Shown: positions 412 through 55,465 of the stretch, one piece after another
How positions within the stretch are numbered: position 1 is the first letter of the stretch
Layout of the letters: each line of letters opens with the position of its first letter
Assembly: GCA_963514005.1 (NCBI GenBank)
Contig: OY740807.1
Span: 14,632,001 to 14,696,000, forward strand
Length of the DNA: 64,000 nucleotides
Reading direction: 5' to 3'
Source of the DNA: Raja brachyura
Taxonomy: Eukaryota
Notes under the pieces: model-generated
The model's input: only the letters and a program-made list of their open reading frames with translations
The model's database searches: none
What the model was told of the DNA's origin: nothing
Made by a program: the position numbers and the translations under genes

Positions 412-1107
412 AGCCCCTGTCCCACTTACGTGTCCTTGGCACGCTAATTACGCGACCTCGTCATCGCGTTGAGCCGCGACGGTCCTGCGAAGGTCGCGCA
501 CGATTTCGTGCGCCCGCACAGCTGCCTGGAGCACGTGACGTCATTTGAAGATGGACACAAAATGCTGGAGTAACTCAGCGGGACCGCAAGCATCTATGGA
601 GAGAAAGAATGGGTGACGTTTCGTGTTGAGACTCTTCTTCAGTCTGAAAGAAGGGTCTTGACCCAAAACATCACCCATTGCTTCTCTCCAGAGATGCTGC
701 CGGTCCCGCTGAGTTACTCCTGCATTTTATGTCCATCTTCAATTTTCTTGGCCCCGCTCTGGGAGTAGAAGTGGGGGCGGATCTGGACCGCAACGGCCGT
801 GAGCCCCAGGCTGAGTTCGGTGATCGTTTGCCTGATTCTGCTGCTGTTGGAGGCGAGACGTTGCATCGCGCCAGGGTCTTGGGCCTGTCCCACTTTGGCC
901 GTCAGTTACGCGACAGGCCATTGGCGTGCGAAGATTTTGTTCGCTACAAAAATTTCGGAGCCCCGCGCGATGTCGAGCACAACTACATACCCGTCCGCGC
1001 TTCTCAGTGGGACCGGCCCTGCGCGGCCATCCGATGCCCGTGCGCCTCAACGCGACAACGAGGTTGTGTAATTTGCGTGCCAAGGTCATGTAAGTGGGAC
1101 AGGCCCT
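412..1107. mobile_element. PIF/Harbinger-type MITE with nested inserts
   Basis: TIRs AGCCCCTGTCCCACTTAC..CCTTGGCACGC / GCGTGCCAAGG..GTAAGTGGGACAGGCCCT; TAA on both sides (409-411, 1108-1110). Confidence 0.8.
546..741. mobile_element. Penelope-derived fold-back (two inverted arms) nested in a MITE
   Basis: ~95-bp arms ttgaagatggacacaaaatgctggagtaactcagcggg.. / ..cccgctgagttactcctgcattttatgtccatcttcaa, meeting at the ctgaa(a)gaagggtcttgaccc core. Confidence 0.8.
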
Positions 1108-2619
1108 TAAGGATCCTTATATTGACATGAACAGCAGGCAAAGCAATTTATTATTAAATCTGAAATGATGCAAGAAGAACAACCTACTATTCCATTCGCT
1201 CTGTCCCTCACATGCAATAGCATCAGTTAAGAGCCCTATTGAAAGGTTTGCTTTGGCTCTGTTGGTGAAGGGTTAATAAGTAAAACCACAACACCCTCAG
1301 TGCAAGTTAAAGGTTACTGTGAACAATCATTTGTTTGAAAAACATTACATAAACATTTTTCCGGATGCAATTTTCAGTCCAAGGATACATTTCCCAGTAG
1401 AAATCAGCAGCTAAAAAGGAAATCATTTAGTCTTGATAAGTGCCAAATTGTATCCTTGTTTTCCTGCTCTGGTTTACTTTTACTAGCAATATAACTCCTG
1501 AAATCTTTCTGGTCCTGACTAGACAAACATTCTTAAAGTGACAGTGCCCATTCGTGGCCTGAAGAGTGTTTTTCTTCAACAAAAGTAACTGATTGAAGAC
1601 AAGGCTCAGTACTTTACATTTCTGCGTGGACTTTTGAAAAATAAATTCCATACTTCACTGATATGATCTAAAGTATTATTTAGTATTTGAAATCATTGCT
1701 GGTGGCCTAACCAATGGTGTGTTTGAAACTGTCATGAAAGGAATTCACAAATAGCTTTTAACACCAAATGTAACTGACTGCTCCCTTTTTACTGATGACT
1801 CTTACTATATCTCGACTATTTAAAAAGCAGCAAGATTGTTACAACCACTTTCACACTAATTAAACGCTGTTGTAAAAGTGTTTTGTTGGCCTGGCCCGCC
1901 AACTATAATCTGAATGCACTGACGTCTCCTGCAAATACAATTGTGTTTTTGCCGGGAGTCCTTTCTAACATCGCCCAAATGATCATGGTCATCATATGTG
2001 AAGGATAGATACACATTTATGGTGGTTTTTTTGCATATCTCAGAAATATCACAATATCTCATCTACATTGAGTTATACTGCACTTGTCTATGTTGCACAC
2101 AAGACTCATTCCACTGACCTTCACCTCACGTTACTAGCATACCCTTTATTCCTTTCTCCACGTATTATCAAGGTACCTCCCCCACCCCCAGAAAGTATCT
2201 TTGCTGGTTTCTTCAACTGTGATGGTGAATTCCACATTGTAACCAATCTCTATATAAAGAGGAATTCCTTCTTAGGTTAGATAGCTTTGAATAATGTTTT
2301 CATCGATGGACCTGCTCCTGAACCTTCCTAATTACTAGGATTCCAACAGGAGGCTGCCAGTAGTCAGATGTAGGCACCTTCGATAATTTATTCATCTGTA
2401 GAGTGCACTTTCCAACAAACCAGCCGTAAATCGTTACAAACTTGGGGTCAAACCTGGAGTATAAACCTCAGCTACATTTAGATCGATGGACTGGGGAAGT
2501 TTTCACATTTGCATTACTATATTATACATAAATACAGGGAATTGTTAACATACTTCTATGGAAGGCTTGCAATTTCACAAACAGTAAGAAAAACTCCCTT
2601 TGCAATGTTAACTTGTGTA

Positions 2620-2745
2620 AAAAGGGTTCGGTCCTGATATGTCACCCATCCTCTTTCTCCAGAGATGCTGCCTGACCCGCTGATTTACTCCTGCACTTTG
2701 TGTCTATCTTTGGTATAAACCAGCATCTGCAGTTCCTTCCTATAC
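2620..2745 (+). mobile_element. Penelope-derived unit (single arm)
   Basis: aagggttcggtcctgatatgtcaccc..ctccagagatgctgcctgacccgctga..aaaccagcatctgcagttcc. Confidence 0.7.
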
Positions 2746-3454
2746 ATCACTGTCATGTCCTATATGACTGACTTTAGAGTCAGGCTCTTAAATCCAAGCA
2801 GAAGCTTTCTAACTCCCATTAAAATTGACTGAAGATAAATGGATCTCCTCCCTGTAAACAGTAAGTGAAATGGGAAGTAATGTATGCATTTGGGAGCCTT
2901 GCACTGGGAAATGTCATGGCCTGGATGTGGGTACATTGTGCAAGCTTCACAGTAGCATTTCTGCCCTCTCATTATGTTAACTAAACATTAGTGTAGGTTT
3001 TAGTTTAATCCCAGACTATTCTTAGCCACATGATCCTCTTGTCTGTCACCCATAAATCACCTGGTTTAATCATTTGCCCTTGCTAAAATTCTCTCCTTCA
3101 CATAGATCGCATTTCATATATCTGTCCTTTGGGTTTCAGGAGGCATTCAGTGAAGGCAAAGGGTTAACTAAGAAGAGGGTTATTTTAAATCCAAATTGAT
3201 TGCATAAAATCTGTTTAACCCTCTGTTGACCTAACATTGTTGCATTAAGCACGTTTTATTAACGTTATCACTTTGTTCAAACATTGGGCAGTTCCCCAAA
3301 CACACATAAATAACTTTGTAGTTATGCAGTTTGGCAAAAGCAGCGATTTTACACCCAAGAATCTCACACCAAAAACTACAATGAAAGGCTGGTTCATTTG
3401 AATAAGGTAATACCAGTTGAAGGGGAATTCTTGACCAACCTCATGTCTGTTTTT

Positions 3455-3765
3455 GTAATTCCTCCTTGGTGCAGTAGGGATGACTAAAACTAGAGGGCAT
3501 CGTTTTAATATGAGAGCAGAAAGATGTAATAGGAACCTGAGGGTCAGCTTTTTCACACGGAGGGTGGTGGGTATATGGAAAGGGCTGCCAGAAGAGGTAG
3601 TTGAGGCAGGTGCTAAAACTATATTTAAAAGATATCTGAAAGGTGCAGGGATGGGATAGGCCTAACGCAGACAAACGGGACCAACTTAGATTGGGCATCA
3701 TGGTCGTCGTGCACAAGTTGCACTTTAGGGCCTGTTTCCATGCTGCATGACTCTATGATTCTCTA
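3455..3765 (+). mobile_element. CR1-type LINE 3' fragment
   Basis: aaaactagagggcat..tttttcacacggagggtggtgggtatatggaa (TRGH / FFTRRVVG.W), followed by a 3' UTR ending in ctctatgattctcta. Confidence 0.8.
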
Positions 3766-53400: not shown

Positions 53401-53938
53401 GTATCTCCTTGTGACATGGATCCCTCTCTCCTAATCCGGCCATCCCTTGCAGTGTTGGTTTTACAATGGTGCTGGAGAGAATCATGCTCTATGCTTCACC
53501 TTGTTAATAATCCCCTCTATCTCTCCCTTCAATGTCTCTCCTACTGTCTTGTTCTGTCTTCCTCTACTGAGGAGGAGAAAATGTGGTTTAAGTTATTTTA
53601 ACAGTTATTTTGGCCATTATCCATTTTTTTTTGCAATACCATATGAACATTAATACTTCAGGAAGTGCCAGCTTAAACCAATAAATATGGGTAGAATCCA
53701 AATTCTGGTCCATTACACCTTGAGATTCATATTGCCGATGAATTACTATTGATGCTTTCAAGCTCTTATCATGAATTTGCTGCAGCTCTGTTCAAATACT
53801 GCCACATTTTCAGCCGGGAAACTAATGCACATGAAATCTCTCAATCAGTGGTGCACAACACTTGAATTTAAACTACAATGTCATCCAAGTTTGAAGTAAC
53901 TTAATCCTGGTTGATCAGTCTTTGTTATTAGACCGACA

Positions 53939-54500
53939 CTAGACAAAGTGGGACCCGTTGGGTCCCAGTCACACGGGAATCCCCTGGTCCCCCAACGCAA
54001 CCCATTCCCCAAAGCAATATTCCACCACTCACCCGTTCCCCCAATGCAACCCGTTCCCCCAATGCATTATTCCACCACTCACCCATGGCCCCTATCTGCG
54101 CAGGCGTGGCTGACGGGTTCCCGCTGTGACGCCCCTTATCCCCCCTCCTCCCTTCACCCACCCCCCACTCCACCTCTTGCCCTTCCCCCCCCACCCGCAT
54201 TCACTCCATCCCCCATCCATTCTTAGCGGCTCTGCGGCGGCGCAGTCATTCCCGCCCATTGGGTTCTCATCATGACGTAGAACATGCAGGTATTACTGCG
54301 TAGGCGCAGCTGATGGGTGTGTGGGAGGGGGGTGTGGGAAGGGGAGGTGTGGGGGAGGGGGGGTGTGGGGGAGGGGGGGTGTGGGGGAGGGGTGTGTGTG
54401 GGGGAGGGGTGTGTGTGGGGGAAGGAGGGTGGGGGAGAGGACAAATAGAATGACCACACAACCGGAAGATAACAAGATCAGAGCTTTAGTTATTTATAGA
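53939..54500 (-). mobile_element. Non-autonomous Helitron (same family)
   Basis: Minus strand starts A|TCTATAAATAACTAAAGCTCTGATCTTG and ends with the GGGACCCAACGGGTCCC hairpin plus CTAG|T. The subterminal sequence is shared with 22691-23741. Confidence 0.87.
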
Positions 54501-55342
54501 TGAGCAAAAATGTGCGTTTTCCTTTCTTTCACATTTGCTATTTATTGATCCCTTGCGGGAACGTTGCAGTGCATTGTGATTGAGGCACGGACATATGTTA
54601 AAACAGGAGGATTGCAGATATTTCTAGTGATGAAGGATTCAAGGCTATGAGGAGAATGCAGGAGGATTAGATCTGGGTTACAGAACCAATGGTTTCATTC
54701 AAACATAATGCATGAAATGTCCATCCTTCTTCATTTGAATGGTCTTTAGCTCAAATGACTTTGGCGATAGAGTAAAATCAGCTGATATACCCTGAAGTCA
54801 ATTCTCACTGGCAGGCTCTCTCAGGAATAATGAACTGCTGAGTGAGAAATTAGGTTCTGCCCACCACCCAGGGAAAATTAGCCAAAGTCGACTAAGGCAT
54901 AAATAGAAAACAATTCAAAAAAGACTTAGCAAATGAAATGGTTACTATGGAACCATAACGTAAATATTTTTAATTATTTAATAATCGAATGAAATAAATG
55001 AAAGGCTCTGAATAATATTGAGCCTTTTGCTGAGGAGGCATGTGGGTGTCTGTAGAAGGCAGGCTGTATAACCTCAACACAAGCAGAGGAAGCTGAATCT
55101 TGTTTTAGAATAATGACCTGCCAACAAAAAAAGTATCACTTCTCAGGAATGCAGATTTTCTCAAAACATCCGAATACCGGAGTAAGGATTTTCTCTTCAC
55201 ATTTTTAATCGGGTTTTCGGCAGACTGCCGTTTATCTCTCCCTACGATGTGGAGCTCGGACTACAAAGAGATCCCAAGGTTGCACTGACTTCAGCAGTCA
55301 ATAGTGCGAAAATGTGCGAGAACACATCAGTTGACAAATGTA

Positions 55343-55465
55343 GGTAGGCAAAAATGCTGGAGAAACTCAGCGGGTGAGGCAGCATCTATGGAGCTAAGTA
55401 ATAGGCGACGTTTCGGGTCGAGACCCTTCTTCAGACTGATGTCGGGGGGGGATGGGGGGAAAAAA
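55343..55465 (-). mobile_element. Penelope-derived mini-insertion with hammerhead-like core
   Basis: Minus strand CAGT-CTGAAGA-A-GGGTCTCGACCC-GAAAC-GTC-GCCTAT..; 12/15 flanking direct repeat (55328-42 / 55466-80). Confidence 0.8.
55407..55434 (-). ncRNA. Minimal type I hammerhead ribozyme-like core (PLE type)
   Basis: CUGAAGA, stem II GGGU-cucg-ACCC, GAAA, then a palindromic ACGU stem III with a GUC triplet. Stem I is weak (~2 bp), so activity is uncertain. Confidence 0.55.

Follow-up and report, generated by a model that had tools for sequence, protein, structure and literature searches.

The 64,000-nt stretch of Raja brachyura DNA analysed here (contig OY740807.1, positions 14,632,001 to 14,696,000 of the forward strand; called the window below, always at its full length) carries short repeat units centred on a predicted hammerhead ribozyme motif. 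The units are real, non-random and mechanistically informative, and an element of a known kind gives rise to them as a by-product. Judged from sequence comparison, they are separately inserted by-products of an autonomous Penelope-like element (PLE), and no separate lineage of them was found in family C, the family compared closely. Probably, though with clear reservations, they arise when the element reverse-transcribes its own leader RNA from a start at +95 or +128 and the copying runs off at the 5′ end of that RNA. Throughout, +1 is the C of CTGAAGA, and the predicted hammerhead cut lies between +28 and +29.

A protein search of the genome with the endonuclease region gave 142,869 candidate sites. 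Among 20 loci taken from endonuclease matches, two, L057 and L056, have the unit at either end of an element of ~4.1 kb, as a direct repeat that flanks an open reading frame (ORF) with reverse transcriptase (RT) and C-terminal GIY-YIG endonuclease coding sequence; the Pfam matches to both are weak and below the curated cut-off. The full-length element with the unit at both ends shows a 10-bp target duplication. The unit makes up the final ~95 or ~128 nt of the terminal repeat and is located ~235 nt past the stop codon of the RT-endonuclease ORF at the 3′ end and directly before the ATG (+164) in the 5′ copy. A previous sequence-only reading of the window had proposed a Penelope origin of the units, and their position at the terminal-repeat end of L057 bears this out. 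A cysteine linker, C-x4-C-x2-C, precedes the endonuclease in the translations of L055 and L057; a CX2-5CxxC linker at this place is a Neptune/Nematis criterion (PMC8557442). The parent would thus be a Neptune-like PLE with endonuclease (EN+), and its linker fits Neptune/Nematis. The optional one-sided tail of 30-40 bp, the inverted 5′ copy and the target duplication are all present in unit copies.

The repeat is abundant. In 960 kb sampled at arbitrary positions, 289 arms scored above 40 bits, which extrapolates to ~0.8 million arms genome-wide, and all unit matches together cover 3.6% of the bases of this sample. One exact 51-mer of family C, the family of L057, has 30,668 copies in the genome.

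The 5′ ends of the units were mapped in an unbiased set and in a young set. For the unbiased map, 380 matches were found in 1.024 Mb (window included), 297 of which were kept with a score of at least 35 and full flanks, and the 5′ ends of these copies were placed against 25 ORF-linked upstream variants. Starts at -6..-1 were found in 96/297 copies, with 14 expected at the downstream rate, and another 84 starts were spread over the 35 nt from +6 to +40. Since missing upstream variants could swell the -5 bin in old copies, the end test was redone on 95 young family C arms, chosen solely on +43..+93 and with a known master sequence. Of these arms 55 stop at -7..+5, and the stop rate per nt is 0.053 in this zone, 0.0014 at -60..-13 and 0.0007 further upstream, i.e. 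about 40-70x the upstream rate. Family A agreed, with 14/41 stops at -8..+5, none at -45..-21 and 15 long copies. Genome-wide counts with exact 20-mer probes, which may differ in subfamily breadth, were 64,847 within the unit, 13,093 at -22..-3 and 11,502 at the ORF end, corresponding to a copy loss of 80% across ~65 nt versus 12% across the next ~245 nt. About 80% of the family C copies are without upstream sequence.

The sequence-only reading had described 5′ ends at or around the ribozyme core and had proposed a breakpoint histogram relative to the GUC site as a check; the two end maps agree with its description and place the non-random ends in a fixed zone at -7..+5. Ordinary random 5′ truncation, which would leave plain Penelope debris, can draw on the long copies, whose truncation points are scattered from -43 to beyond -1600, and on the description of single motifs as truncated copies in PMC4209133 and bioRxiv 10.64898/2026.07.22.740005. 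However, because the ends cluster near the core, with a 40-70-fold stop rate in a zone of 12 nt, far more starts than expected and a steep loss over ~65 nt, random truncation is refuted for the short class and, as an account of the units in general, has next to no probability left.

The 5′ stop lies just before the ribozyme and not at its cut site. Starts at +29 were not enriched (2/297 in the unbiased set, 0/95 in the young set), and no segment ends at +28 (0/260). The 3′ ends are located at +93-95 or +127-128. Target duplications of 8-18 bp were detected around 22/38 young single copies versus 29/1406 mismatched controls, and they flank 20/22 two-arm arms. As these duplications surround window copies and young copies elsewhere, the earlier claim that the units were inserted separately holds.

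These end positions also bear on the earlier proposal that the units form a separate, non-autonomous, retrozyme-like family of small RNAs, cleaved by the hammerhead and mobilised in trans. The large share of family C copies without upstream sequence would suit such a family, as would a core motif that is constant over 6 clusters save H17 and the loop, and the few tandem arrays (L334 with a period of 191 nt, L065 with 75 nt). Against it stand the absence of cut-site ends, the rarity of a same-strand second unit close upstream (4/297 unbiased copies) and the close relation of short copies to ORF-bearing ones, which were compared closely in family C. Short, fold-back, long and full-length copies all contain one exact 51-mer; the differences among short, two-arm and long copies are scattered and lie mostly at CpG (0.023, 0.015 and 0.011 changes per site, respectively); in this family no variant was found that marks short copies alone, and the commonest short-copy difference, G42A, occurs in full-length L056 too. 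Moreover, short copies are without +129..+200, which the composites described below imply to be on the template, and the hammerhead is not the minimum-energy fold. With ends that take no account of the cut site, sequence common to short and ORF-bearing copies, and few same-strand neighbours, the separate family did not stand up and is regarded as very improbable. A tandem on contig C38 with a period of 3,695 bp (21295000-21311000; L031-L034) was considered as a PLE array and rejected: it has CR1-type ORFs, and the several Penelope units within each 3,695-bp repeat are passengers.

In each of the 6 clusters, the core nucleotides of the predicted hammerhead fit the consensus for the minimal type I motif, with the bulge before stem II, the G-C closing pair and the palindromic loop 3, which agrees with the motif assignment of the sequence-only reading. 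Every core base is kept in 55/136 copies that cover the core; stem II is 83-90% paired with one-sided changes and no compensatory double changes, and helix I has 2 bp. Folding did not favour the hammerhead (z +1.2, -0.9, +0.4), and a forced double hammerhead of L334 was 19 kcal/mol worse than the free fold. The search with hammerhead models that had been suggested earlier was negative: Rfam models gave no match in the window (E up to 5) nor at 55330-55480 (E up to 10). The predicted ribozyme appears to be carried along without leaving a mark on the copy ends. In work on the Anolis Poseidon element PAc, ribozyme cleavage needs protein and is not required for insertion (PMC11167929), and the lack of unit ends at +28 fits such cleavage-independent insertion.

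According to the favoured mechanism, the element's protein would hold an RNA that spans about -6 to +200-280 and would cut both DNA strands, with priming at +95 on one and at +128 on the other. The RT would then run off the physical 5′ end of the leader RNA, which would be the transcription start just before the hammerhead motif and probably capped. Joining of the complementary DNA (cDNA) to the target would give a single arm, joining to the other cDNA a two-arm copy, and a jump back onto the RNA's 3′ end a composite, while long copies would derive from read-through transcripts extending further upstream. The model matches the behaviour of PAc in vitro, where the tail results from two internal RT start sites, both strands undergo extension, the reaction needs RNA beyond the start sites and the substrate is uncleaved RNA (PMC11167929). 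Furthermore, the terminal repeat harbours the transcription starts of the D. virilis and Chlamys elements (PMC2377424, PMC8557442).

The two-arm copies, in which units stand head to head, all pair one short end with one tail end at 16 loci (the list of which names L291 twice). In 7/16 the short-end arm goes beyond the tail arm on the 5′ side by 5 nt or more. Hairpin copying of one cDNA cannot give this arrangement; therefore we infer that two separate primings made these copies, in line with the extension of both strands in vitro (PMC11167929). Long head-to-head pairs with 450 to >1400 nt per arm were observed at L239, L277 and L280, again with one short and one tail end. Another two-arm insertion (L065:260-600) contains three 75-nt repeats, each comprising a hammerhead core and a short inverted piece.

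A junction from the tail to the ORF start is present at 816 sites genome-wide, the first 30 of which, representing 28 loci, were analysed. Four loci continue for >1.5 kb, one is irregular and 23 are composites that read unit, ORF start and then a second unit or a piece of untranslated region (UTR). These composites are single insertions in which the second copy often ends at the same base, and 15/23 have a duplication scoring at least 10 around the whole composite. The jump acceptor is located at +185..+285 in 21/23, in a set picked for carrying +119..+162, so that acceptors below +162 are invisible; the donor is located at -7..+3 in 10/23 and elsewhere in 13/23. Junctions never recur between loci, each of which has its own, and they recur within loci, namely three times in L334, twice in L350 and in both arms of L355. 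L334 is a tandem of 2.5 copies of 191 nt. For a second family 106 junction sites were listed, and five incidental examples show similar joins. For two other organisms, public contigs of uncertain RNA status show a fall in summed depth past about +190..+260; the fall agrees with the jump zone, but subfamily divergence confounds it and it is not taken as evidence. The R2 enzyme is known to jump between templates with untemplated additions (PMC8857657). The ORF-start probe also recurs at spacings of 311, 328 and 157 bp at C1:162939582-162940247, C2:59590114-59590485 and C32:12962307-12962494, which are candidate retrozyme-like tandems from repeated jumps.

In L348 (-14/-13), L350 (-92/-92) and L358 (+34/+36), the two passes of the composite stop at one and the same unusual base to within 2 nt; therefore the stop belongs to the molecule. 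In addition, extra bases at the jump end in G at 5/6 donors at -7..+3 versus 0/3 elsewhere (Fisher p 0.048, on nine junctions), as a cap would leave; untemplated G has been read as a cap mark for L1 (PMC4859970). A more specific version of the mechanism is offered tentatively and is rather less probable than the run-off itself: the main template would be a short capped leader of about -6 to +185..+285, it would be primed twice per cut, and a jump from the cap to the 3′ end of the same RNA would write hammerhead tandems in one insertion. If this were true, cap-to-3′-end jumping would be the birth route of retrozymes without long terminal repeats (non-LTR retrozymes) and of the partial tandems of PLEs, visible in several hundred genomic events.

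The same enzyme and start sites could also act on an RNA whose 5′ end is a protein- or structure-protected edge left by exonucleases, or the RT could stop strongly at the ribozyme edge on longer RNA. The ragged, footprint-like acceptor zone at +185..+285 and the first and last ~12 nt of the tailed unit, which fold into a closing stem, agree with this alternative, as does L353, which passes -4 once and stops there once. Repeated identical stops at -14, -92 and +34 speak against a purely sequence-fixed RT stop, and the G at 5/6 jump junctions also weighs against the alternative; a trimmed end with no cap may still be the explanation. The alternative as a whole is judged unlikely, with roughly one chance in a handful.

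A further alternative takes the boundary as a 3′ splice site, with a pyrimidine tract and CAG at -4..-2, so that short copies would come from spliced RNA. The 25 ORF-linked upstream variants are all rich in pyrimidines, 21 of them have CAGT as their last bases ahead of the core, and an intron of D. virilis with its end at helix I offers a precedent (PMC4209133). Against splicing, no common exon sequence was found upstream of 92 single copies, the composition is flat beyond -7, and many copies retain -7..-3, which would lie inside the intron; it is thus very improbable. Near +160 of L057, a splice-donor-like AAG/GTATG that overlaps the ATG is conserved across families. Between it and the acceptor-like CAG at -4..-2 lies a segment of 162 nt, and back-splicing could occur there.

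Several points weigh against run-off from a leader RNA. Besides the selection of the jump set and the few junctions behind the G test, the young samples were the first matches on one contig, and G before single-arm starts was not significant (12/27, p 0.10; 5/16, p 0.52), which agrees with the alternative of a protected or stalled edge. Only 17/141 mixed-age unbiased single copies show a duplication (control 6/702). The tail arm extends further 5′ in 3/16 two-arm loci, two of which are shared palindromic centres. In L353 the stops are -113 for the first pass and -4 for the second, and the passes of L337 and L357 differ too; these mismatches need a switch between molecules or a sequence-specific stop. 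Finally, the transcription start of the D. virilis element is not placed at the edge of the ribozyme but upstream of the intron ending at helix I (PMC2377424, PMC4209133).

The literature already describes tails, inverted ends, dispersed single hammerheads and an origin of retrozymes from PLEs. The EN+ PLEs Neptune and Nematis (PMC8557442, PMC3846280) share with the present element the ORF with RT and C-terminal GIY-YIG domain, the cysteine linker, the terminal repeats, the inverted 5′ copy, the one-sided tail of 30-40 bp and the target duplications; unlike in the accessible accounts of these elements, the unit-only product is here the majority (~80% in family C), the 5′ stop is sharp and ORF-start jumps are frequent. 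PAc (PMC11167929) likewise has two internal RT start sites ~33 nt apart, extends both strands, needs RNA beyond the start sites and inserts with ribozyme cleavage unnecessary. Its start sites are located inside the ORF, which begins within the ribozyme, whereas both sites precede the ATG (+164) here, and the accessible text on PAc reports neither run-off ends nor re-jumping, both of which are proposed here. With the minimal type I hammerheads of metazoan PLEs (PMC4209133) the motif shares the CUGANGA core, the unpaired base before stem II, the G-C closing pair, GAAA, a palindromic 2-nt loop 3, a 2-bp helix I as in D. virilis, and the occurrence mostly as single dispersed motifs, some on opposite strands; unlike those described there, it is known from sequence alone, with a stem II free of compensatory double changes. 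Non-LTR retrozymes (PMC7229834; bioRxiv 10.64898/2026.07.22.740005) are also PLE-derived and short, carry a type I hammerhead and occur in part as dispersed monomers. They are head-to-tail tandems that the ribozyme processes to monomer and circular RNA, in contrast to the units described here, which are mostly single or head-to-head, whose ends ignore the cut site and of which only rare jump products form such tandems. No fixed 5′ stop and no ORF-start jumps were found in a literature search confined to accessible text, with Repbase, subscription papers and supplements (those of PMC4209133 and of the preprint may list the family) outside its scope.

PLE integration and the origin of tails, inverted ends and tandems are still open questions, and one element has been reconstituted in vitro. 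With one family represented by >30,000 exact young copies and with 816 leader-ORF junctions, this genome records how the Penelope class inserts. These copies lead to base-level predictions for the in vitro assay: a start site on each of the two strands, run-off at -7..-2 and a re-jump at +185..+285. The composites suggest how retrozyme-like tandems may arise from autonomous elements. For annotation, a repeat that makes up ~3.6% of the sampled DNA is to be labelled as a Penelope by-product and neither as a new short interspersed element nor as a retrozyme.

Within the window, a profile made from window copies gave 28 matches, 12 of them segments of at least 60 bits, compared to a maximum of 4.9 bits in the controls (five shuffled or reversed sequences), and a refined profile gave 21 segments versus 0 in the reversed sequence. 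The 28-nt core pattern was found with up to three mismatches at 4 places, with 0 expected. The ten main and four older units listed by the sequence-only reading are all present, far above chance; those at 546, 12144, 28487 and 41431 are corrected here to head-to-head two-arm copies. The copies and related features are as follows.

546..647, minus strand: the left one of two head-to-head arms in a single insertion, covering unit -5..+92, 87% identical to an ORF-linked copy.
639..744, plus strand: right arm of the same insertion, 93% identical to an ORF-linked copy; the palindromic centre 639-647 is common to both arms.
2619..2746, plus strand: single arm with tail, about +4..+131, with decayed ribozyme core and no flanking repeat of at least 8 bp.
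3988..4063, plus strand: old eroded copy, 20.8 bits.
11878..11982, minus strand: young single arm of family C (as full-length L057), end ~+93, exact 10-bp duplication 11878/11973, 96% identity.
12136..12267, both strands: short two-arm insertion, minus arm +32..+91 and plus arm +88..+126, 8-bp duplication 12136/12260.
17675..17726, minus strand: old remnant, absent from the earlier listing.
26311..26403, plus strand: old eroded copy, with a further remnant at 26561-26599.
28479..28686, both strands: two-arm insertion, tailed minus arm 28487-28620 and short plus arm 28620-28678, 8-bp duplication 28479/28679.
29755..29803, minus strand: old remnant, absent from the earlier listing.
32740..32853, plus strand: young single arm of family A, -3..+93, intact core motif, exact 8-bp duplication 32740/32846, 96% identical to ORF-linked L008.
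36274..36405, plus strand: old copy reaching about -21 of the upstream UTR.
41437..41637, both strands: two-arm insertion, minus arm 41437-41537 towards the tail and plus arm 41540-41637.
41799..41927, minus strand: single arm with tail.
46442..46551, plus strand: young single arm of family C, start +9, end near +95, exact 12-bp duplication 46442/46540, 95% identity.
55343..55464, minus strand: single arm that extends into the UTR as far as -31; the core motif at 55407-55434 is perfect.
55997..56062, minus strand: C-terminal end of the GIY-YIG endonuclease from another Penelope-like copy, which is older; 16/22 residues are identical to L057.
63139..63234, plus strand: old eroded copy.

The direct repeats claimed before at 46442/46540 and 11878/11973 are exact, and three further exact 8-bp repeats flank the units at 32740, 12136 and 28479. 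The claim that several units are bracketed by repeats of 8-15 bp stands for these five, with 8-12 bp. In the flanks of the units at 546, 2620, 41805 and 55343 no repeat of at least 8 bp was found, and at 41431 the 8-mer sits within the unit. Identity to ORF-linked copies is 92-96% for the young copies of the window and 78-93% over the aligned part for older ones; upstream UTR is reached by the units at 55343 and 36285, and no unit in the window forms a true tandem. The GIY-YIG C-terminus noticed earlier at 55990-56062 is real, and a link of this fragment to the unit at 55343 was rejected, as the two lie ~530 nt apart and the homology of the unit stops at -31.

Other repeats of the window were recorded as well. 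At 21573-21870, perfect 79-nt terminal inverted repeats with 140 nt between them resemble a miniature inverted-repeat transposable element (MITE), and full-length L056 sits within a copy of apparently the same repeat. Elements with termini of the type GGGCC..TGTCCCACTT are located at 31158-31524, with 80-nt inverted arms at 31158/31445, at about 870-1110 and near 42500-42680; we presume a likeness to PIF/Harbinger MITEs. Broken RT-like frames of 179 and 178 amino acids at 19347-20753 presumably resemble DIRS-type retrotransposons.

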